From an uncultured Rhodomicrobium sp. (GTDB taxonomy: Bacteria; Pseudomonadota; Alphaproteobacteria; Rhizobiales; HXMU1428-3): 64,000 nucleotides of DNA. Of the stretch, positions 2 to 23,375 are shown one piece after another. Location: positions 36,088 to 100,087 of the forward strand of contig CAYGPF010000004.1 of NCBI GenBank assembly GCA_964351785.1, given 5' to 3'. The notes beneath the pieces are model-generated. The model was not told the DNA's origin. It did not search any database and worked only from the letters and a program-made list of their open reading frames with translations. Position numbers and translations under genes: made by a program. Every line of letters begins with the position of its first letter. Position 1 is the stretch's first letter.

Positions 2-1498
2 GATAATATTATCAGTGGCTATGACAGCAATGGCTTTGACGCCAAGGTGATCTGGGTGCCGAACGGTCTGCTGGCTGTTACATATGAAGTTGATAACTTC
101 CTGGCTGAATCAGCAGCGGCATTTTCCGTGGTGGCCGACGTTGAGCGCCACTCATTGAATATTGCCCTCAGACCAACATCCCGTTCAACTATTGATCTTT
201 ATGGTGCGCGGGAAGTGCGCAAGGAAATTGGCACTGGCTTTAAATATGATGAAGAAAAAGTCGCTGCCACCTATTCATATGATGTCACTGCAACCAGTCA
301 GTTTTATGTGACCGCCCTTTACGAACATACTGAAGAAAATCTGACTCTGAGTGATTATGAGCGGTTTAAGGTTGGTGTTGGTTATCGTATGAAATTCGTT
401 CGGAACCCTGGTGAGGTTGAAGAAAATGTCAATCTTCGCCGGGCCATTTTGCCAGGTGTTCAGATCATTGACACGCGTGTCGGTTATTCAAAACTGTACC
501 TGCCTGAGACCAATATGGTCACTGTGCTGAACCCTGCCTTCACGCAGTCTCTTTATCATGTGGAGAACCATGATGGTGAAGTTGATGGTTTGCGGTTTGA
601 TGTTCGCATTCCCGCATTTGCCGGCAATGTCACCACACCGGAGCTTGACAGGGTGCAACTCGGCAATCGTCTGCTGACATTCAATTTTGGCGGTTATTAC
701 GGTACCTACAGCGACAAGCAATATTCCGGTTGTGCCTCCACTGTTGCCATTCAATGTGCCTTCTTCAATGTTATTGACCCACAACCGCTGAATGAGAACA
801 ACACGGCGCCTAACGGTGTGTTTGCCATTCGTACCGCTAAAGAAGTTGATATCTGGGGCGTGTCTATGGAAACCCAGTTTAATGGCTGGATGGATAAAGG
901 CGGCATGAAAGACGAACCACAACAACGCTTGCACCGTCCATTCCGTCTGGGTCTTGCTCTGAAAGCTATCCAGCAGGATACACGACTTTTCGCTTATGAT
1001 ACGGATGTTCCGGACCCTGTAGATTATAATGAGGATCTTGATACATATTATTATGGTGTCTATCTAGGTCTTGATCACACATTCAATCTTGGCCGTGGTT
1101 TTAATCTTGGTATTAATGCTGAAGGTGGCCTCTATTATGCGGACACCCAATATAAAGGCCGGTACCTCGCTTATGTTGATGATGGCAATGGTATTGGAAA
1201 CTATGTACTTGATCAGGGGCAACTGTCACTTTCCGAGCATGACTTCTCTTTCATTGGTTCTGTCAGGGTTGAACTGAGCAAGCAGATAGGTCACGGCATA
1301 TTTGGGCTTTACGCTGAGGGTGAATACTACTCATTTGCACCTGAGATGCGGTACAATGATAATGACGTGTCGACGGCTGGTATTTTCAGTGTGTTTGATA
1401 TCACCGGACCAAACAATGGCACTTCGGTTGATGATGGGGATGCCTACTCCTACACAATTGGTGGTCGGTTTACACTGCCGCTGCACACACAAGAATAA
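2..1498 (+). CDS. Putative outer-membrane beta-barrel protein, C-terminal part (5' end lies outside the window)
   Basis: The reading frame of ORF 47..1498 stays open to the left window edge (codons from position 2: DNIISGYDSNGFDAKV...). The sequence has alternating aromatic/polar short strands (YSYDVTATSQFYVTALY, FNLGINAEGGLYYAD, YSYTIGGRFTL) typical of OM barrels. A hairpin plus T9 terminator follows. No specific family recognised. Confidence 0.45.
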   Translation, partial: DNIISGYDSNGFDAKVIWVPNGLLAVTYEVDNFLAESAAAFSVVADVERHSLNIALRPTSRSTIDLYGAREVRKEIGTGFKYDEEKVAATYSYDVTATSQFYVTALYEHTEENLTLSDYERFKVGVGYRMKFVRNPGEVEENVNLRRAILPGVQIIDTRVGYSKLYLPETNMVTVLNPAFTQSLYHVENHDGEVDGLRFDVRIPAFAGNVTTPELDRVQLGNRLLTFNFGGYYGTYSDKQYSGCASTVAIQCAFFNVIDPQPLNENNTAPNGVFAIRTAKEVDIWGVSMETQFNGWMDKGGMKDEPQQRLHRPFRLGLALKAIQQDTRLFAYDTDVPDPVDYNEDLDTYYYGVYLGLDHTFNLGRGFNLGINAEGGLYYADTQYKGRYLAYVDDGNGIGNYVLDQGQLSLSEHDFSFIGSVRVELSKQIGHGIFGLYAEGEYYSFAPEMRYNDNDVSTAGIFSVFDITGPNNGTSVDDGDAYSYTIGGRFTLPLHTQE

Positions 1499-1527
1499 TT
1501 CCCTTCCCAGTATGGGTTAGGTTGAGA

Positions 1528-1558
1528 AGGCGCGAGAGGTTCTTGCGCCTTTTTTTTT
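1528..1558 (+). terminator. Rho-independent terminator after the barrel gene
   Basis: AGGCGC-N11-GCGCCT stem followed by a run of T (1551-1558). Confidence 0.75.
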
Positions 1559-1782
1559 ATGCCCTTTTTATATCCTCAGTTGCCGCCTTAATCTCCCGCT
1601 GATCAAACCCTCACCATACCATCTGCTCTTACCGATTAAGGTTAAGCTTTAAGTGTAGAAATGGTTTGGAGAGGTCAAGTCGTTTTTTCATTGATATAGT
1701 CGCGCCGGTTGCATGAGAGGTTCAGTTACCTTTGATGTCTTCCTTTTCTTTCCTAAAAAGTATCTTGTTAAGGAGCTAATTC

Positions 1783-2160
1783 ATGAAAAAAATTATCACA
1801 GTTACAGCGGCTGTTGTTGCAGCCTCTATGGCACTATCAACATCAGCTTTTGCTGGTGGCTCACGTGGTCACTATCAAAGCCCTGCTAAGAAACTAACTT
1901 TCGCTCTCTCAGGCGCGAAAAGTCATGTGCATGTTCGCACTGGTGGCTGCGGTTGCTATGGCGGCATCAAGATGGATTCCGGTTCGTACCAGGACCACAA
2001 AGTTTTTGACAATAAATATGGCCTTGGCGGCTCATCTTCAGCTGGCAACTACCTGAATGCTGGCTGGAAGGGCGGCGCGCATATCCAATATTCTGGTAGT
2101 GCATTTGCCGTTGGCGGCGCAGCAATTATCAGCGGTGGCTCTAAAAAACGCACTCGCTAA
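1783..2160 (+). CDS. Small secreted Gly-rich CxC protein, paralog 1 (125 aa), unknown family
   Basis: SD AAGGAG lies 7 nt upstream of the ATG. Sec-type signal peptide MKKIITVTAAVVAASMALSTSAFAGG. Mature core is shared with the next two genes (LTFALSGAKSHV.VRTGGCGCYG...AGNYLNAGWKGGAHIQYSGSAFAVGGAAIISGG). It has its own terminator. Confidence 0.8.
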   Translation: MKKIITVTAAVVAASMALSTSAFAGGSRGHYQSPAKKLTFALSGAKSHVHVRTGGCGCYGGIKMDSGSYQDHKVFDNKYGLGGSSSAGNYLNAGWKGGAHIQYSGSAFAVGGAAIISGGSKKRTR

Positions 2161-2170
2161 TCAATAAAGG

Positions 2171-2204
2171 AAAAGGCGCTCTTTTTAGACTGCGCCTTTT
2201 CTTC
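2171..2204 (+). terminator. Rho-independent terminator after paralog 1
   Basis: AAAAGGCGC-loop-GCGCCTTTT followed by a T-rich tail. Confidence 0.7.
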
Positions 2205-2371
2205 TGTTGACATGCGATCCTTAACCTTAAACTTTAAAGTTAACAATGGTTTAACAACGCAGCTGCTATTGCCTGTTGCTATAGTTCCTATGGGGGAATT
2301 TTTTGAGCATACAGATACGCTCTAAATGGTTTCTCCCGCCTCTTATTTGTCTTTTGTTAGGGAGCTATTTC

Positions 2372-2764
2372 ATGAATAAACTACTTACATTTACAGCTGC
2401 TGTTGTCGCGGCCTCTATGGCGCTTTCAACCGCAGCATTTGCTGGTGGGTCTGGCGGTAAAAACCGCAACTCTGCCAAGTCACTTACATTCGCCCTTTCT
2501 GGTGCGAAAAGCCATGTGCGCGTGCGCACAGGTGGTTGTGGTTGCTATGGCCAGTTGCATGTTGATGGTGGTTCATACCAACGCCACAATGTTTACAGCA
2601 ACCATTATGGCACTGGTGGGTCTTCTACTGCCGGTAACTATCTACATGCTGGCTGGAAGGGCGGCGCGCATATCCAATATTCCGGTAGTGCGTTTGCCAT
2701 TGGCGGCGCTGCGATCATCAGTGGTGGCTCTAAAAAACGCCCTGGTGGAAATATGGAAAACTAG
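2372..2764 (+). CDS. Small secreted Gly-rich CxC protein, paralog 2 (130 aa)
   Basis: The ORF track starts at 2303, but the internal ATG at 2372 (MNKLLTFTAAVVAASMALSTAAFAGG) is preceded by SD AGGGAG and aligns with the start of paralogs 1 and 3. The 3' 92 nt differ from paralog 1 at about 7 positions by hand alignment. Confidence 0.8.
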   Translation: MNKLLTFTAAVVAASMALSTAAFAGGSGGKNRNSAKSLTFALSGAKSHVRVRTGGCGCYGQLHVDGGSYQRHNVYSNHYGTGGSSTAGNYLHAGWKGGAHIQYSGSAFAIGGAAIISGGSKKRPGGNMEN

Positions 2765-2808
2765 GCAGCTGCCAGTCCTAACTGTTGTATGCCTATTGCT
2801 AAAACATG

Positions 2809-2840
2809 CCACCCCTCAGATCCTTTGAGGGGTGGTTTTT
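2809..2840 (+). terminator. Rho-independent terminator after paralog 2
   Basis: CCACCCCTC-loop-GAGGGGTGG followed by TTTTT. Confidence 0.8.
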
Positions 2841-3010
2841 AATTCCATAATTACACACCCCATCATTTATATTTAAGCATTATCCTTAACATCATTTGTT
2901 TCTTACATGTCTTTTTTGGCCTTGTTATGGTGATTCCGGGGGAGAATACATGGGTTTATTTATGTTTTTATCTCCCTGTCCTTTTTAAGTATTTCGTTAG
3001 GGAGAATTAT

Positions 3011-3451
3011 ATGAAAAGACTACTTACTGTTACTGCTGTTGTCGCGGCTTCTTTGGCCCTCTCAACAGCATCTTTTGCCGGTGGTTCTGGCGGAAAAAAT
3101 CACAACTCAGCTAAATCTCTGACTTTTGCTCTCTCCGGTGCGCATAGCCGGGTGCGTGTGAATACTGGTGGCGGCATGCCTCCTGCGCCTCCTGTTCGCC
3201 GCAAGAAAAGAAAGACATCCTGCGGTGGTTGTGGCGGCTATATCAGCGTTGATGCCGGCTCTTACCAGAACCATCATGTTTACAGCAACCATCATGGCAC
3301 TGGCGGTTCTTCCAACGCCGGCAATTACCTGAATGCCAGATGGAGTGGCGGCGCTAAAATCGAATATTCAGGTAGCGCATTCGCCATTGGCGGTGCAGCC
3401 ATAATCAGTGGTGGTAAATCACGTGGTAACGGTGCTGCCAACCCTCAATAA
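3011..3451 (+). CDS. Small secreted Gly-rich protein, paralog 3 (146 aa), with a Pro/basic insertion
   Basis: The ATG at 3011 (MKRLLTVTAVVAASLALSTASFAGG) is preceded by SD AGGGAGA. Same core as paralogs 1 and 2, plus the insertion GMPPAPPVRRKKRKTS (3173-3220) just before the Cys pair (CGGCGG). Confidence 0.8.
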   Translation: MKRLLTVTAVVAASLALSTASFAGGSGGKNHNSAKSLTFALSGAHSRVRVNTGGGMPPAPPVRRKKRKTSCGGCGGYISVDAGSYQNHHVYSNHHGTGGSSNAGNYLNARWSGGAKIEYSGSAFAIGGAAIISGGKSRGNGAANPQ

Positions 3452-3500
3452 CAGTCTGGTCATTTTCAAGTCCTGACTTATAAAACGACTATTTTCCTTG

Positions 3501-3532
3501 CCACCCCCCGGTTCACCGAGGGGTGGTTTTTT
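3501..3532 (+). terminator. Rho-independent terminator after paralog 3
   Basis: CCACCCC-loop-GGGGTGG followed by TTTTTT. Confidence 0.8.
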
Positions 3533-3669
3533 ATGATCCCCTCATCCGGCTGCCAATTAAGATTAACGGTTTACCAACATATGTCTTCAGTGCCAAGCAG
3601 CCCGCCCGGTGGCACGGCAATTGGACCTTTTCAGTTTGATTACGCGTTAAACAGGAAAAGGAAACGATT

Positions 3670-4248
3670 ATGTTCCAATTTAAAACGTTAGCGGCCCTGT
3701 CAGTTGTTTCAGCTGTTCTACTTTCATCCATGGGCATGGCCCAGGCTGGTGGTTTCGGTAAGAAAAAATATCGTGGCAGTGCTTCCGTTGCAAAAGCTTA
3801 TTCCAACAGCTATGCAAATCTACACTCTCAATTCGGCACGTTGAAAGTTAACAACTATGCCAACATCAAGACCAAAAACTACAAAGGCAAATTCATTACT
3901 GCTGAAGCCAATGCAGGTAACAATATATTCCTCATTGTAAATGGCAAAAAATGTTCCGGCAAATGTGGTGCGGGTACAAATGTGAATTCATGGTCAGGTG
4001 CCAAATCAAAAATCTACGCCAAAGGCAAAAAGGTATTTGGAAAGGCGCAAGCTGTTAATTACGTCAAGCTATATTCCAAAGGCAATTTGATGTTTGATTA
4101 TGAGAGTGACTCTTATGCGATCAGCAATTTCACACCACTTGGTGTTTATGTTGATGCTGGCACTTTCCAAAAACTGAACCTTGCTGCGAAAGGTTTTGTC
4201 CGTCTTGAAAGCGGTAATCTTGCGCACACAAGCGTTACGATTAAATAA
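3670..4248 (+). CDS. Secreted Lys/Asn/Ala/Tyr-rich protein (192 aa), unknown family
   Basis: Signal peptide MFQFKTLAALSVVSAVLLSSMGMAQAGG. The mature part has low hydrophobicity and is repetitive in character (AKAYSNSYANL, NNYANIKTKNY, AEANAGNN), with a Cys pair CSGKC. It is on the same strand as the paralogs, directly after them, and a shortened copy of their upstream motif precedes it. Confidence 0.7.
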   Translation: MFQFKTLAALSVVSAVLLSSMGMAQAGGFGKKKYRGSASVAKAYSNSYANLHSQFGTLKVNNYANIKTKNYKGKFITAEANAGNNIFLIVNGKKCSGKCGAGTNVNSWSGAKSKIYAKGKKVFGKAQAVNYVKLYSKGNLMFDYESDSYAISNFTPLGVYVDAGTFQKLNLAAKGFVRLESGNLAHTSVTIK

Positions 4249-4283
4249 CAATCCAATAAAACACTCCCCCTCCTCACACTTTT

Positions 4284-4327
4284 CTATCCCCTTTGGTTGG
4301 CTTCATAGACCGGGGGGATAGATTTTT
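4284..4327 (+). terminator. Probable terminator after the 192-aa gene
   Basis: CTATCCCC...GGGGATAG stem with a long loop, followed by ATTTTT. Confidence 0.5.
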
Positions 4328-4431
4328 CTTTTAAAATCTCTCAAAAAAGACGGACTTGCCCCTTGCGCCGACCCAGCTTGGCGACTAGATTGCCGGGTCT
4401 GATTTCGATGTTTAGGGATAGAGTGAAATAT

Positions 4432-4686
4432 ATGGATTTTGAGGGTAGTTCGAAAGAGCATTTGAAGCGATTTGTTGAACGTATTGAAAGGCTTGAGGAA
4501 GAAAAGAAGGCTCTTGCTGATGACATCCGTGAGGTTTTTGCAGAGGCCAAAACAATGGGTTTTGACTTAAAGGCGCTGCGGACGATCATCCGTATTCGCA
4601 AACAGGAACCTCATATCAGGCAAGAGGAAGAAGCTGTATTGGAGACTTATCTCGCAGCTCTTGGCATGCTGCCTGAAAGCGAATGA
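4432..4686 (+). CDS. gapR: GapR / DUF2312 (UPF0335) nucleoid-associated protein
   Basis: [58 protein letters not shown]... closely matches the alphaproteobacterial GapR pattern (..[28 protein letters not shown]). The ATG at 4432 is chosen over the longer track ORF. Confidence 0.9.
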
Positions 4687-4693
4687 AAGTCTG

Positions 4694-6064
4694 ATGGCGC
4701 GGTCACCTCACCGCCGTGATGACAAGGCTTCCGGCCTTATCACAAGGCAGATCGTTACCACGTGGCTTACTCAGATCATCTCTCAAAAACGGTCACTTGA
4801 TGATGTGCTGCTTGAGGCGGAGGGGCTTGCCGCCTGGCGCGCACTTGAGGCAAGGGACAAAGGCTTTGCCCGCACCATGATCATGGCAGTGCTCAGGCAC
4901 AAGGGAGAGATTGACTGGCTGCTCGCCAAATATCTCCAGAAACCCCCGCCCAGACGCAGCCAGGTGCATGAGATCCTGAGCATTGCCGCTGCGCAAATTC
5001 TGTTCTTGGATGTTGCCGCTTATGCTGCGATTGACCTTGCTGTCAGGCAGGCTAAATCTTCTGACCGGTCCCGGCATCTTGCCAAACTGGTGAACGCCGT
5101 ATTGCGCCGGTTAAGTGAAACCGGGCCAGCGGTTTTGAAAGAGGAGGATGCCTCCCTTTCCCTCAATATTCCCACTTCCCTGATGGACCGCTGGGTCAAG
5201 GCTTATGGTCTTGATACGGCACGTCTGATTGGGGCTGCATCATTAGAGCCAGCCGCACTTGACCTTGCGGCCAGCGGTGATGCCATAACCCTTGCCAGCA
5301 TGGTAGGGGGCGTGCCGCTTGCGCCTGGCAATGGCGTCCGGCTTTTGCACAAGGGCGCGGTGCCGGATCTTGCCGGGTTTGCGGAAGGGGCCTGGTGGGT
5401 GCAGGATTTTGCCGCGCAACTGCCAACGCTGCTCTTTGGCGATCTGACTAACAAATCTGTGCTTGATCTTTGTGCAGCGCCTGGTGGCAAGACAGCGTCT
5501 CTTATCCGGGCCGGTGCAAAGGTTATGGCGCTTGATAGTTCGCCCAAACGTCTGGAGCGGGTTCGGGCAAACCTAGTGCGGCTGAATTACAAGGCTGAGG
5601 TTGTGGAGGCGGACCTTTTTAAATACCAACCTGATGATCTCTATGATGCGGTGTTGCTGGATGCGCCCTGTTCCTCAACAGGGACAGTTCGGCGGCATCC
5701 TGATATTCTGCATCTCAAAACTGTTGGGCAGATTAAAGAGCTGGCGGCCCTGCAGGCCCGCATGCTTGAGCAAGCCACCGGGTTTTTAAAGCCTGGCGGG
5801 CTGCTTATTTATTGTACCTGTTCGCTGGAGGCGGAGGAAGGCGAGCTGCAGATTGAGCAGTTTCTTGAGGGAAGGGATGATGTGAAGCGGGTGCCGATAG
5901 AGCCTTTGGAAATTGAGCTGCCACCGGGCTGGATAACAGACGCCGGGGATGTTCGCTTGTTGCCGCATTATTCACCCCGTTCTGAGCCGCCGCTTGAAGC
6001 GCCCCTTCAGGGGATGGACGGGTTTTTCATCTCGCGCCTTAGGCTGCAGCCTTCTGCTACATGA
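4694..6064 (+). CDS. rsmB: 16S rRNA (cytosine-C5)-methyltransferase, NOL1/NOP2/Sun family
   Basis: N-terminal NusB-like region, then a SAM-MTase with DLCAAPGGKT and DAPCSSTGTVRRHPD motifs. The start (4661 or 4694) is uncertain. Confidence 0.88.
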   Translation: MARSPHRRDDKASGLITRQIVTTWLTQIISQKRSLDDVLLEAEGLAAWRALEARDKGFARTMIMAVLRHKGEIDWLLAKYLQKPPPRRSQVHEILSIAAAQILFLDVAAYAAIDLAVRQAKSSDRSRHLAKLVNAVLRRLSETGPAVLKEEDASLSLNIPTSLMDRWVKAYGLDTARLIGAASLEPAALDLAASGDAITLASMVGGVPLAPGNGVRLLHKGAVPDLAGFAEGAWWVQDFAAQLPTLLFGDLTNKSVLDLCAAPGGKTASLIRAGAKVMALDSSPKRLERVRANLVRLNYKAEVVEADLFKYQPDDLYDAVLLDAPCSSTGTVRRHPDILHLKTVGQIKELAALQARMLEQATGFLKPGGLLIYCTCSLEAEEGELQIEQFLEGRDDVKRVPIEPLEIELPPGWITDAGDVRLLPHYSPRSEPPLEAPLQGMDGFFISRLRLQPSAT

Positions 6065-6382
6065 AGTCTTATTTACGGGGACTGACTTTTGTGTTTCATT
6101 CCCGGTGAGGGGTGAAATTGAGAGCAGATGCCAGAAAAGGCCCCCAAAAAGGTCTGTGAATAAACTGTATTGCGCCGTAAAAACCCCAAGATGGCCGGGA
6201 AAACTGTTCCATAATCAACAAGGCTCGCAGAAAAGGCGCGGGTTTGCTGGATTTATGTGGGAGACCAGAGACCTTTAAAGGCCTCACTGGTTCGCAAATC
6301 AAACAGGATTGGCAGAGTGCCCCATGCTCAGTATGATGCGCGTGAACTGGTGCTTCCTGAAAGAGAGAAATTAAACATCAAG

Positions 6383-8713
6383 ATGGGACCTTTTTTTCGT
6401 CGCTCACCTTCATCGCTTTCCTCTGTCGAAAAGGCCAAACGGGATGTTGCGCTTGGTCTCAAGCGGCTGCCTGTTGTCAGTTGGCTTTACCAGCCCAAGG
6501 ATGTTAATCACCTGTTGCTGGTGCCGCGAGACCTGCGCACGGCTGACCCCAGTTTTTCAATAGAGCTTGATATGGGCCAGTTTGGCCTGGCCGGGGCGAC
6601 CGTTCTGCTGGAGGGGGCTTCTCCGTTTCATGCTGATCCCCCTAACCTTTCCTGGCAACAGGAGTTGCACGGCTTTGGCTGGATCAGAAACCTGCGAGCG
6701 GCGCGGTCTGAGCGTTCCCAGCAACAGGCACTGGAGCTGCTTGAGAGCTGGATCAACAGTTTTCGCAGCCAGAAAGGCGTCGCCTGGGAGCCGGGCGTAA
6801 CCGCTCGTCGGCTCATCAGCTGGCTATCTCACTCAAATTTCCTCCTCAACGAAGCCGATGAAGAGCTTTACATGGATCTGATGATCTCAATTGATGATCA
6901 TATGCGTTTTCTCTCCATGGCCGGTGTGCATGCCAACCCGGGGTTGCCGCGGCTTTTGAGCCTGATTTCTCTGGTGTTTGCCGGGCTTTGTGTCGCCAAT
7001 CAGGAAAAGTTTCTCGATCAGCAGGTAAAGCTGCTTTGCAACGAGCTTGACCGCCAGATCTTTAGTGATGGCGGTCATATCTCGCGTGATAATTCGGTTC
7101 TGGCCAGCATTCTTTTAGACCTGTTGCCCTTAAAGCAATGTTTTGTCACTCGGAAATTTGAGGTTCCACCGCCATTGCAGGATTCGATCGGGCGGATGTT
7201 ACCGATGATCAATTATATGCGGCTTGGTGATGGGCTATTAAGCCGTTTTAACGGTGCGGGTACAACCCTGCCTGACACGCTCAGCACCGCTATGGCTTAT
7301 GATGATGTTTCTAACACACCGCTTGAGAAGGCCAGCTCCTCGCATTATTTCCGCCTGCAAAGGGGCAATGTGGTGGTGCTGATGGATGGCGGCGGGCCGC
7401 CGCCGCTTGAAATCAGCCAGAAAGCTCATGCCGGCTGCCTCTCCTTTGAGATGTCCTCCGGGACCTGCCCGCTTATCGTCAATTGCGGGGCGGCGCCGCC
7501 TGCTTTTCACACCATGGCGAACAATGCCCGGGCGACTGTTTGCCATTCGACCCTTACTGTTAACAATCGCTCTTCCGCCCAGTTCCTGCATGAAGAAAAG
7601 CTTCGCTCCGAGGAACACACAAGCCTTTTGGAAGGCCCGGCCCTGGTTGAAGCCCGCTATGAACGCAGCGGTGATCAACATAAAATCGTTGCCAGCCATG
7701 ATGGGTATCTCGCCCAGTTCGGGATCATCCATAACCGGCTTCTCAGCCTTTCCAATGATGGCTACACACTGATCGGGGAAGACTGGATCGAGTTGCCGAT
7801 GGGGCATGATGTTATCCAGAAAGGGCTTGGCTGGCCGTTTGCCGTGCATTTTCATATTCATCCCGATGTGGTGCCTGCCCGCTCTGCCGATGGCAAATCA
7901 GTTATCCTGACCCTGCCAGACAGCCAGGTCTGGACGTTCAGCGCCAATGATATGGTGATCCATCTGGAAGAAAGTATATTTTATGCTGATTTTGCCGGGC
8001 CCTGTCAGTCTGTTCAGATTGTCATTCGCGGTAATTGCCTTGGCCCGGTTTCCATTCCCTGGAAATTATCGAAGTCCATTCAGTCTTCAACACCGGATCC
8101 AAAGAATATACCGGACTGGATTTCGGGTAATGTCATTTCGCTTGAAAGTGCCCTTGAAGAGCAAAGCGAGCAACCGGAGAAGGACGACAAATCACCTGAT
8201 AAAGAGAAAACTCAAAAAGCTGGCGGCATGACAAAACCTAAGATTACGGACCTTGTTGAAGATACGGATGATGAAGTTGCTGCAGATGATGACAAACCGG
8301 TAAAGAAAACAAGTCCGGATGATCAGGTTTCTACTGATCAGAGAGTTGAGGCGAAGACTGATAAACCCTCACCTTCACAAATAAGAAAGCGCAAAAAAAG
8401 AGCGCGGCATAACGCGCCTTCACATTTTGCCAAACTGAAACCGGTTGCAGATAAATCTGATACTGATAATCAGCCGCCGCCGCTCCCGAAAACCGGAGGG
8501 GCCTTAAAAGGCGATCAACCGCCGCCGCCGCCATCTGGCAAAACTGGCCGGAATACAGCCATCATTAAAGGAGAAAAGGGCGGCCAACAGAAGGATGCCG
8601 AAAAAGGCGGCAGAGCGACTACCGATAAAACGGCAACGAACAATAAAGGCAAAGAAGCACCACTGTCGCCGCAACCACCGCCCATGCCTAAACCTAAACG
8701 GGATGATGAGTGA
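6383..8713 (+). CDS. Heparinase II/III-like family protein with a long disordered Lys/Pro/Asp-rich C-terminal tail
   Basis: It sits in the conserved alphaproteobacterial position between rsmB and purH. The core (LLVPRDLRTADPSF..., SDGGHISRDNS...) resembles the heparinase II/III-like family. About 210 C-terminal residues are low complexity. The start is uncertain (GTG 6257 or ATG 6383). Confidence 0.7.
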   Translation: MGPFFRRSPSSLSSVEKAKRDVALGLKRLPVVSWLYQPKDVNHLLLVPRDLRTADPSFSIELDMGQFGLAGATVLLEGASPFHADPPNLSWQQELHGFGWIRNLRAARSERSQQQALELLESWINSFRSQKGVAWEPGVTARRLISWLSHSNFLLNEADEELYMDLMISIDDHMRFLSMAGVHANPGLPRLLSLISLVFAGLCVANQEKFLDQQVKLLCNELDRQIFSDGGHISRDNSVLASILLDLLPLKQCFVTRKFEVPPPLQDSIGRMLPMINYMRLGDGLLSRFNGAGTTLPDTLSTAMAYDDVSNTPLEKASSSHYFRLQRGNVVVLMDGGGPPPLEISQKAHAGCLSFEMSSGTCPLIVNCGAAPPAFHTMANNARATVCHSTLTVNNRSSAQFLHEEKLRSEEHTSLLEGPALVEARYERSGDQHKIVASHDGYLAQFGIIHNRLLSLSNDGYTLIGEDWIELPMGHDVIQKGLGWPFAVHFHIHPDVVPARSADGKSVILTLPDSQVWTFSANDMVIHLEESIFYADFAGPCQSVQIVIRGNCLGPVSIPWKLSKSIQSSTPDPKNIPDWISGNVISLESALEEQSEQPEKDDKSPDKEKTQKAGGMTKPKITDLVEDTDDEVAADDDKPVKKTSPDDQVSTDQRVEAKTDKPSPSQIRKRKKRARHNAPSHFAKLKPVADKSDTDNQPPPLPKTGGALKGDQPPPPPSGKTGRNTAIIKGEKGGQQKDAEKGGRATTDKTATNNKGKEAPLSPQPPPMPKPKRDDE

Positions 8714-22250: not shown

Positions 22251-23375
22251 TTACATTGTCAATGGGGTCAATGCTTTTACATCTTTTGCAAATTTTACAC
22301 GGTCTTCTTTTGGAAGCGGGATCAGACCCTTTTCAACCAAATAGCCGTCATCACCCCAGGTTTTGTCTGCTGTGAATTCAGAAGCGTATTCAGCAATTCC
22401 TGGAACTGTGCCGACATGCTCTTTCTTGATATAGAAGAAGAGTGAGCGTGAAACGCCGTATTTACCGCCGGCAATGTTTTCAAATGTAGGTACGACACCA
22501 TCAACAGTTGAGCCTTTGACTTTGTCAGCGTTCTGATCAAGGAATGAGAAACCGAAAACGCCAAGTGCGTTTGCGTTTTTCTCAAGTTTCTGGATGATTA
22601 GATTGTCGTTTTCACCAGCTTCAATAAAGGCACCGTCTTCACGAATGGCATGAGCAATTTTCTGGAAAACTTTTTTGCCTTTTTTGATTTCCTTGCCGTC
22701 TTTCATGTAGTAGGCCTTATCAATGTTTTTGACACCGGCTTTGTAAGCATCTTCACCAGCTTTGGCACCGCGCAGAGCTTTCAGCCAATCAAATTTCTTG
22801 GCGCCGCCTTCCATGGCAAGCTCGACAAATGCATCGCGTGTGCCTGATGTTGGGGGAGGGCCAAGCACTTCAATTTTGATGCTTGGAAGAGATGGATCAA
22901 TATCTGACCATTTCTGGTAAGGATTTTCGATAAGTTTGCCTGGGTTCTTTGGATCAGGAACATGCTTTGCCAGCGCCATAAAAATGGCTTTTTTGGTCAG
23001 AGCAAATTTTGGACCTGATTTTGAGTTGGCCAGTACAATGCCATCAAAACCGATTTTTACCTCAACAGGCGTGATGCCGTTTTTGATGCACTTTTCAAAT
23101 TCATTTTTCTTGATGCGGCGTGAAGCGTTTGTCACGTCTGGATGCTCAAGACCAACGCCAGCACAGAACAATTTCATGCCGCCGCCTGAACCGGTTGACT
23201 CAACAACAGGTGTTTTGAATTTTGGATTTTTACCGAATTGTTCTGCAACCGCTGTTGCAAAAGGAAATACTGTTGATGATCCAACAATGCGGATTTGGTC
23301 ACGTGCAGTTGCTGCACCTGTAGACAGCGTTAGTGCAACCGCTGTTGCCGCTGTAAGTGTTAATAGCTTTTTCAC
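22251..23375 (-). CDS. pstS: Phosphate ABC transporter substrate-binding protein
   Basis: Signal peptide MKKLLTLTAATAVALTLSTGAATA, then RIVGSSTVFPF and SGTRDAF motifs of PstS-family binding proteins. It is at the head of the pst operon with Pho boxes upstream. Confidence 0.9.
   Translation of the reverse strand: MKKLLTLTAATAVALTLSTGAATARDQIRIVGSSTVFPFATAVAEQFGKNPKFKTPVVESTGSGGGMKLFCAGVGLEHPDVTNASRRIKKNEFEKCIKNGITPVEVKIGFDGIVLANSKSGPKFALTKKAIFMALAKHVPDPKNPGKLIENPYQKWSDIDPSLPSIKIEVLGPPPTSGTRDAFVELAMEGGAKKFDWLKALRGAKAGEDAYKAGVKNIDKAYYMKDGKEIKKGKKVFQKIAHAIREDGAFIEAGENDNLIIQKLEKNANALGVFGFSFLDQNADKVKGSTVDGVVPTFENIAGGKYGVSRSLFFYIKKEHVGTVPGIAEYASEFTADKTWGDDGYLVEKGLIPLPKEDRVKFAKDVKALTPLTM

Follow-up and report, generated by a model that had tools for sequence, protein, structure and literature searches.

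Introduction

Transport of proteins across, or their fixation to, the Gram-negative outer membrane without an energy source has been solved for few cases, namely curli, Fap, type V secretion, type 11 secretion and LptDE-like plugs. In curli (type VIII secretion), the subunits CsgA/CsgB are small, Gly-rich beta-proteins exported via Sec whose mature N-terminus is likewise rich in Gly, and they are encoded beside a dedicated outer-membrane channel, CsgG; CsgE/F are further components. The YjbEFGH and GfcABCD exopolysaccharide loci encode a small low-complexity exported protein together with an outer-membrane barrel of ∼700 aa. The channel role of CsgG and the HfaA/HfaB/HfaD holdfast anchor of Caulobacter have been described (PMC6707917), as has the Fap system of Pseudomonas, with its FapC/FapB amyloid and the trimeric, gated 12-strand barrel FapF (PMC5557850). 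Type 11 secretion combines a Slam/DUF560 barrel with adjacent cargo (PMC8406197; bioRxiv 10.1101/2024.09.26.615229). Here we describe a locus in a 64,000-nucleotide stretch of DNA from an uncultured Rhodomicrobium sp. (contig CAYGPF010000004.1, positions 36,088 to 100,087; hereafter the window), in which an outer-membrane barrel gene is followed by four small genes, p1 to p4, encoding exported proteins. Our best reading, reached by analogy, is that the locus would be a non-homologous variant of the combination of a dedicated outer-membrane barrel with small exported partners, its logic resembling that of curli, Fap, Hfa and type 11 secretion.

Results

The barrel and its small partners form a conserved module

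All four open reading frames (ORFs) of the initial annotation were recovered with the same coordinates and lengths, downstream of a barrel ORF that stops at 1498 (Table 1). p1, p2 and p3 are A-type proteins and p4 is a B-type protein. The barrel protein in full, P0007, has 802 aa. Its family comprises about 27 clusters, all of 760–850 aa, and among species-representative genomes it was found in Hyphomicrobiales metagenome-assembled genomes (MAGs) only (Methyloligella, Methyloligellaceae, Rhodomicrobium, Hyphomicrobiaceae); several carriers are marine or host-associated MAGs. Judged by the relatives of its barrel, the organism of the window falls in Hyphomicrobiales, close to Methyloligellaceae. 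We inspected 20 distinct barrel loci with usable flanks. Whether the small genes are tied to the barrel outside this genome had been set in advance as a test, and at least one small exported partner adjoins the barrel in 20 of the 20 loci, a B gene being present in 13 of them. Gene order and partner type differ among three clades of loci (Table 1), the partners being A in clade I, a Gly/Ser/Thr-rich protein (A′) in clade III and a hyper-basic protein (K) in clade II. The genes flanking the module are unrelated between genera. Since adjacency is kept through changed context, gene order and barrel architecture, a functional linkage of the barrel and the small genes is shown, and together they very probably form one functional module.

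The identities of barrel and B track each other (76/77, 40/40.5, 37/40 and 49/56%), and A diverges faster than either (71, 32, 31 and 38%, best pair). By these values p4 is a conserved partner that appears to co-evolve with the barrel. From such sequence comparisons, the trio of barrel, A and B is a real, undescribed, putative cell-envelope module limited to some Hyphomicrobiales.

A rule-based signal-peptide scan covered 47 partner sequences, nearly all of which carry a Sec leader with an A-x-A site for signal peptidase I. Mature A, K and B nearly all start with ‘GG’ (or ‘EGG’) directly after this site. In clades I and III it is A or A′ that carries a close Cys pair (CxC to CxxxxC). K of clade II has only one Cys; the clade II barrels have two additional CxC pairs, at 418/420 and 700/702, both in predicted inter-strand turns. 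The close Cys-pair motif appears to migrate between partner and barrel across the clades. Charge also varies by clade: A, K and B have an isoelectric point (pI) of 10–12 in clades I and II, and A′ and B one of 4.4–7 in clade III, where the partners are acidic or neutral and Ser/Thr-rich. The K proteins (160–195 aa, pI 12) contain 40–49% K/R/H, with ‘KKVIIKK’-type runs, a C-terminus rich in Arg and a single Cys that is conserved. Such a composition is unusual for an exported protein. K is the sole partner of the barrels nearest to the window's barrel.

One locus, L025 (CAVYJM010000006.1), is titled ‘uncultured Thermoplasmata archaeon’. It is near-identical to the alphaproteobacterial locus L024, with frameshifts, and is likely a product of mis-binning or a chimeric MAG.

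Comparison with known systems

Like curli, the module has Gly-rich Sec-exported beta-proteins beside an outer-membrane channel, with a major and a second subunit type. Unlike in curli, the channel is a single-chain BBP2_2-fusion barrel and not a CsgG-like lipoprotein oligomer, a close Cys pair is conserved, and A and B are non-homologous. No Pfam match to the curlin repeat (PF07012) was found in the module proteins at E≤1, and neither CsgG, CsgE nor CsgF occurs in the precomputed Pfam annotations of the neighbours at any locus. A curlin-type repeat build of A was ruled out (hhalign probability ≤7%, no PF07012). The initial annotation had seen no curli, usher, type I secretion or sortase genes in the window, and this extends to the other loci, none of which has such genes beside the module.

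The module resembles Fap in that a bespoke beta-barrel outer-membrane protein is encoded with small Sec-exported substrates, and in the N-terminal periplasmic helical segment of the barrel, which in P0007 is predicted at low confidence. It differs in that its genes are monocistronic and not in one operon, and in that A has no imperfect repeats. FapF is not among the 50 PDB fold matches listed for P0007; no genes for FapA, FapD or FapE and no protease gene adjoin the module. The Hfa system is likewise alphaproteobacterial, and its two exported proteins, one of them small, need an outer-membrane partner for surface localisation. However, HfaB is CsgG-like and HfaA curlin-like, and no holdfast polysaccharide genes lie near the module. 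The module proteins gave no NCBIfam or Pfam match to HfaA, HfaB or HfaD.

With type 11 secretion the module shares a single outer-membrane protein as sole dedicated component, and adjacent Sec-dependent cargo that varies by lineage while the outer-membrane protein is conserved. P0007 is not a DUF560 protein, however, and the feature common to the partners is N-terminal (‘GG’). The type 11 cargo domain (C-terminal 8-strand TbpBBD/lipoprotein-C) had no Pfam match in the partners, and neither TbpB, hemophilin nor fHbp is among the 50 best Foldseek matches listed for the p4 model.

LptD-LptE and MtrC-MtrA-MtrB also pair a large barrel with one or more small partners encoded nearby, but the partners here have no haem motifs or lipoprotein signal and are variable and amplified. 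The clade III A′ proteins are Ser/Thr/Gly-rich in the manner of YjbE and GfcA. This resemblance was not supported by hidden Markov models (HMMs): A, A′, K, B and the barrel gave no match at E≤1 to the Pfam families YjbE, YjbF/GfcB, GfcC and YjbH. Unlike the YjbE/GfcA loci, the module loci have no lipoprotein partners and no polysaccharide genes. No NCBIfam match to a PEP-CTERM or GlyGly-CTERM sorting signal was obtained for p1–p4. As to class II microcin or bacteriocin features, there is no double-glycine leader, and no ATP-binding cassette (ABC) exporter, C39 peptidase or immunity gene is conserved at any locus.

The barrel protein is a two-module fusion

The Pfam domain BBP2_2 (PF10082) was matched by residues 79–436 of P0007, corresponding to profile positions 15–378 of 378 (41.4 bits against a cutoff of 23.7, E = 1.1e-10), which is a full domain. 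The part of the barrel lying in the window matches by itself only the BBP2_2 tail (E = 0.028). Besides BBP2_2 and a weak OMP_b-brl match, Pfam found nothing on P0007, and the ∼365 residues after the BBP2_2 domain match no family. Compared with the BBP2_2 Pfam family, the barrel family adds a non-Pfam module of ∼340 residues and dedicated small partners. BBP2_2 stands for putative beta-barrel porin 2, and nothing on its function was found in the searchable literature.

An AlphaFold2 model of P0007, made with 23 homologs, had a mean predicted local distance difference test score (pLDDT) of 79. It shows ∼18 strands of ∼13 residues, a low-confidence linker at 440–443 and then 10–12 strands of 18–29 residues. 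The 50 PDB fold matches listed by Foldseek were generic channel barrels, with MtrB, AlgE and OccK among the best. MtrB was the top match by E-value (7e-11), yet its template modeling (TM) score was only 0.22–0.27, and the 18-strand AlgE and OccK gave ∼0.5 (target-normalised) over 410–450 columns. The barrel is strongly acidic, with a net charge of −42 (−36 to −52 for clade I and II barrels).

Two Cys residues of the C-terminal part, C548 and C556 (approximately window 731–757), are invariant across the whole barrel family. P0033, a protein of 368 aa that has a signal peptide of its own, aligns only to P0007 residues 464–798 (35% identity, E = 9e-61). The existence of this stand-alone protein indicates that the C-terminal part of the barrel is an exported beta-module in its own right and that two modules are fused in the ∼800-aa protein. 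P0033 is encoded at L031 4625–5731. Its gene adjoins one for a MarR-type regulator and those for three exported proteins that are small and rich in Gly, Ser and Thr (Table 1); one of the three contains the close Cys pair CNRC and another the close pairs CNC and CIGC.

The small proteins belong to no described family

The initial annotation could place none of the four small proteins, and the database searches bear this out. In Pfam, NCBIfam, PHROGs and PADLOC, p1–p4 gave signal-peptide noise only (Asr, ExtJ, TrbC, phrog_542), and profiles of A and B had no match among PDB sequences. A p1–p3 profile found 6 clusters among 5.8 billion proteins, of which 3 were self. HMMER on 1.84 billion representatives gave four matches for A, namely one self, the true relatives P0045 and P0047, and P0046, a beta-helix repeat protein of the filamentous-haemagglutinin type. 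The P0046 match, which is repeat-boosted and of high compositional bias, was treated as compositional, and P0046 was not counted as an A relative. A diverse p4 profile found 11 clusters; the metagenome scan for B was made with a narrow B alignment. A genome scan with the A alignment gave no locus, which would fit an absence of the A family from the species representatives. Judged by these searches, p1–p4 belong to no described family, and only the N-terminal BBP2_2 domain of the barrel is recognised.

p1, p2 and p3 are paralogs with the mature core that had been quoted for them (pairwise protein identity 66–77%). Their near-identical Sec-type leaders passed a rule-based check, with a K/R n-region, a hydrophobic stretch of ∼15 residues and, directly before GG, the site A-F-A. 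A CxC pair had been ascribed to all three; p1 and p2 do carry CGC, but p3 carries CGGC (CxxC). p3 also has a 17-residue Pro/Lys-rich insertion that is present in the sister-organism ortholog, so the triplication is older than that split. The ratio of nonsynonymous to synonymous substitution rates (dN/dS) was 0.13–0.37 for every pair drawn from these paralogs and the three orthologous genes, which indicates that p1–p3 are real genes under purifying selection. As first counted by hand, p1 2059–2150 and p2 2648–2739 differ at few positions, exactly 7 of 92. Among codons for identical amino acids, 21% differ between p1 and p2 in this segment and 48% elsewhere in the gene (Fisher p = 0.013, for a segment picked post hoc), which gives modest support to a patchy gene conversion between p1 and p2.

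The A proteins are Gly-rich, with a pI of 10–10.6 and period-2 amphipathic segments (z∼1.6). Segment-versus-segment hhalign found no internal repeats in p1–p3 (probability ≤7%). The hydrophobic run at the C-terminus of A has only ∼13 residues and is missing in distant A and K proteins. At window 22251–23375, on the minus strand, a periplasmic phosphate-binding protein similar to PstS is encoded; its leader (MKKLLTLTAATAVALTLS...) resembles the p1–p3 leaders, which accounts for a weak A-HMM match there.

p4 is an exported protein of 192 aa with the CSGKC pair (CxxxC) that had been noted; mature B has ∼165 residues. Its model (pLDDT 78, predicted TM score 0.72) is an all-beta meander of about nine strands of 14–17 residues with tight turns, and its beta-amphipathicity is strong (z = 4.3). 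No PDB neighbour was found by Foldseek among the 50 best matches listed (best E = 0.015, TM≤0.26). A and B were considered as distant paralogs on the basis of a BLASTP match (E = 0.008) and weak HMM cross-hits. This was rejected at an hhalign probability of 4.5%; the cross-hits are due to the leader and the GG motif.

Expression signals

Each of p1–p4 has, as initially annotated, its own Shine-Dalgarno sequence (SD; AAGGAG/GGGAG, 6–8 nt 5′ of the ATG) and its own terminator. Predicted hairpin-plus-T-run terminators follow the barrel gene and each of p1–p4, with z from −2.0 to −7.3. The 17-bp pattern TTAA-NN-TTAA-N3-TTWA has 8 matches in the 64-kb window, where 0.37 are expected by chance, and all 8 lie within the four regions upstream of p1–p4. 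The same pattern was seen in the sister species, and the element occurs ∼140–150 nt upstream of the clade II K genes. The p1 element is centred ∼60 nt upstream of the putative −10 sequence TATAGT, a position that would suit an activator site. A CtrA box was rejected by inspection, as the TTAA spacing is N2/N3 and not N7. By these signals p1–p4 are predicted to be separate but co-regulated transcription units, each with its own promoter region, SD and terminator.

A second element, TGGC-N7-TTGGA, is found at a conserved position 58–61 nt upstream of the B start codon in four species; two clade III loci have it 83 nt 5′ of the barrel gene. The p4 copy, of −24/−12 type, reads GG at −12, versus GC of the sigma-54 consensus TGGCAC-N5-TTGCW. 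The 5′ leaders of p1–p3 (1701–1782, 2292–2371 and 2933–3010) have a possible GGGGGA/TCTCCC stem and an anti-SD stem of CCTTTT with AAGGAG, the consensus energy being only −2.3 kcal/mol with little covariation. Rfam gave no credible match on window 1400–4500.

Table 1. Features of the barrel locus and of related loci. Positions refer to the window unless a locus (L) is named; terminators and promoter elements are predictions.
Feature	Position or loci	Strand	Remarks
Barrel gene, 3′ part	2..1498	+	residues 305–802 of 802-aa P0007; enters from left window edge
Barrel gene, end of BBP2_2 domain	2–397	+	Pfam match of P0007
Barrel gene, novel C-terminal beta-module	∼479–1483	+	invariant C548/C556; stand-alone homolog P0033
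Terminator of barrel gene	1524..1554	+	intrinsic; −20 kcal/mol, z = −4.0
TTAA-NN-TTAA-N3-TTWA	1636..1652	+	upstream of p1
Putative −10 of p1	1695–1700		TATAGT
p1	1783..2160	+	A-type small Gly-rich basic exported protein; 125 aa, CGC
Terminator of p1	2168..2203	+	−24.8 kcal/mol, z = −7.3
TTAA-NN-TTAA element(s)	2221..2243	+	upstream of p2
p2	2372..2764	+	A-type paralog; 130 aa, CGC
Terminator of p2	2808..2836	+	z = −6.0
Degenerate TTAA element	2873..2889	.	upstream of p3; 1 mismatch
p3	3011..3451	+	A-type paralog; 146 aa, CGGC, Pro/Lys-rich insertion
Terminator of p3	3500..3527	+	z = −4.3
TTAA-NN-TTAA element	3557..3573	+	upstream of p4
TGGCAC-N5-TTGGA	3610..3625	+	−24/−12-type (sigma-54-like); 60 nt upstream of p4
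p4	3670..4248	+	B-type exported protein, predicted beta-meander; 192 aa, CSGKC
Terminator of p4	4283..4322	+	−21 kcal/mol, z = −2.0
TGGC-N7-TTGGA, further sites	L001 11826–11841; L009 11396–11411; L010 11470–11485; L018 97–112; L022 4918–4933		
Clade I	window, sister species L001–L007, L009 = L023, L010		order: barrel, A (1–3 copies), B
Clade II	L008 = L017, L011–L016		order: barrel, one hyper-basic exported K; no B within 5–8 kb
Clade III	L019–L022, L024–L027		order: A′ (Gly/Ser/Thr-rich, exported), B, barrel
Metagenome contig	L028		order: barrel, K-like gene on opposite strand, A-like, B
K genes	L008 10665–11171; L011 10940–11419; L012 7744–8328; L013 5322–5897; L014 7604–8152; L015 7695–8267; L016 7751–8239		
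Neighbours of P0033	L031 5997–6365	−	
Neighbours of P0033	L031 7812–8408; 8455–8883		

Discussion

Proposed function

We tentatively regard the locus, by analogy with the systems compared above, as a dedicated outer-membrane export, display or assembly module in which exported A would be the cargo or surface subunit, B an adaptor and the barrel their partner. Its parts would be an acidic protein of ∼800 aa in which an 18-strand BBP2_2 barrel is joined to the C-module, a conserved B and a fast-evolving A, which is triplicated here and swapped for Ser/Thr-rich or hyper-basic proteins in sister clades. Each small gene would be transcribed alone from a co-regulated promoter, in keeping with the cis-element and terminators shown above. 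The small proteins would pass the inner membrane via Sec, the cut by signal peptidase I would leave a common Gly-Gly N-terminus, and the close Cys pair would be oxidised in the periplasm. They would then engage the barrel, most likely its C-module, with B serving as a fixed accessory or adaptor and A as an abundant cargo or surface-displayed subunit. This role is proposed for A because of its monocistronic units with strong SDs and terminators, its triplication, its fast divergence and its replacement by other compositional classes.

Several observations weigh against such a function. The roles of translocon and cargo are assigned by analogy and from how fast the components evolve relative to one another. 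Clade II is entirely without B, so B is not universally required. The barrel gene in the window's lineage has no TTAA element, which means that co-regulation of barrel and small genes is not strict. In clade III, barrel and partners are all acidic, and their charges are thus not complementary. Finally, no structural neighbour was found for the B model among the 50 best PDB matches listed, and B by itself may not be a complete structure.

A bolder form of the proposal is possible, though doubtful: a new outer-membrane export or display pathway in which the fused double-barrel protein would recognise the Gly-Gly N-terminus of disulfide-stapled small proteins and display or anchor them, with B as adaptor and with Gly-rich, Ser/Thr-rich and polycationic classes of cargo. 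If this were true, it would be a new type of secretion system with no component homologous to types I–XI. The module is compact and apparently self-sufficient, comprising one outer-membrane protein and one to four small exported proteins of unrecognised families. With it, three or four new protein families would be defined, the unstudied BBP2_2 would gain a function, and a tractable barrel-plus-cargo pair would become available for studying the recognition of an N-terminal Gly-Gly. The hyper-basic form of the cargo could be relevant to surface charge and to mineral or host adhesion, or be of use as a biomaterial. The general impact of the module is limited by its narrow taxonomic range.

Alternative explanations

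The strongest competitor, which we consider rather unlikely, is a stable hetero-oligomeric channel, with B and possibly A as permanent lumenal or plug subunits of the barrel, as LptE is for LptD or MtrA for MtrB. The assembly would be a gated conduit for some other substrate, and the small proteins would not themselves be exported through it. The lockstep divergence of barrel and B would suit it, as would the basic charge of the partners against an acidic barrel. The open-looking B meander without a neighbour among the 50 best PDB matches listed is what a partner-completed chain would give, and MtrB, the top fold match of the barrel by E-value, is the sheath of a three-protein trans-outer-membrane complex. 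The TM score to MtrB is low, however (0.22–0.27). Fixed 1:1 subunits are not expected to be triplicated, fast-diverging or swapped as A, A′ and K are, each small gene has a separate promoter and terminator with no element in common with the barrel gene, and no transported substrate or enzyme candidate is conserved nearby.

An extracellular functional amyloid or fibre, towards which the initial annotation leaned, would have A as major subunit and B as nucleator or anchor, assembled via the barrel. It is nested within the export and display function proposed above and does not add to it, and we consider it unlikely. The gene layout is like that of curli, Fap and Hfa (PMC6707917, PMC5557850), the Gly-rich A has period-2 amphipathic segments, and A matches the beta-helix repeat protein P0046. 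That match, however, is highly compositionally biased; A has no internal repeats, homology to curlin, Fap or Hfa was not found, and A and B are non-homologous, which sets them apart from the pairs CsgA/CsgB and FapB/FapC. With 45% basic residues, the K proteins are unlikely to form amyloid.

Still less probable is that the small proteins are free effectors, either peptides of a cationic antimicrobial or bacteriocin-like kind or periplasmic polycations that, like Asr and Skp, would protect the envelope; the barrel would then be their exit pore or a co-inherited neighbour. The high pI of A and the composition of K would agree with this, proteins of conflict or stress typically occur as fast-diverging tandem paralogs, and weak sub-threshold NCBIfam matches to Asr were obtained. 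But the Asr matches (≤17.6 bits against a 50-bit cutoff) are confined to the signal peptide and the first residues, the leaders are of Sec type and not of the double-glycine bacteriocin type, and no locus has an immunity gene, ABC exporter or C39 peptidase. In clade III the partners are Ser/Thr-rich proteins of acidic or neutral pI, and the dN/dS values show no positive selection.

That unrelated hypothetical genes came by chance to lie beside a porin gene is highly improbable, given co-location in 20 of 20 loci despite changed flanks and gene order, the common cis-elements and the co-divergence of barrel and B.

Neighbouring genes

Left of the window (L030), the barrel gene is divergent from a pyrroloquinoline quinone (PQQ)-dehydrogenase and cytochrome c cluster, with ∼1 kb of intergenic DNA. 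GapR-like (4363–4686, +) and RsmB-like (4661–6064, +) genes come after p4. Both sets of flanking genes are common only to the window and the sister species. An 818-aa heparinase II/III-like protein is encoded at window 6257–8713 (+), and its gene is likewise kept beside the locus only in these two. The L001 ortholog has a Hepar_II_III_C domain, and the window protein has a C-terminal tail of ∼200 residues with very high contents of Pro, Lys, Asp and Glu.

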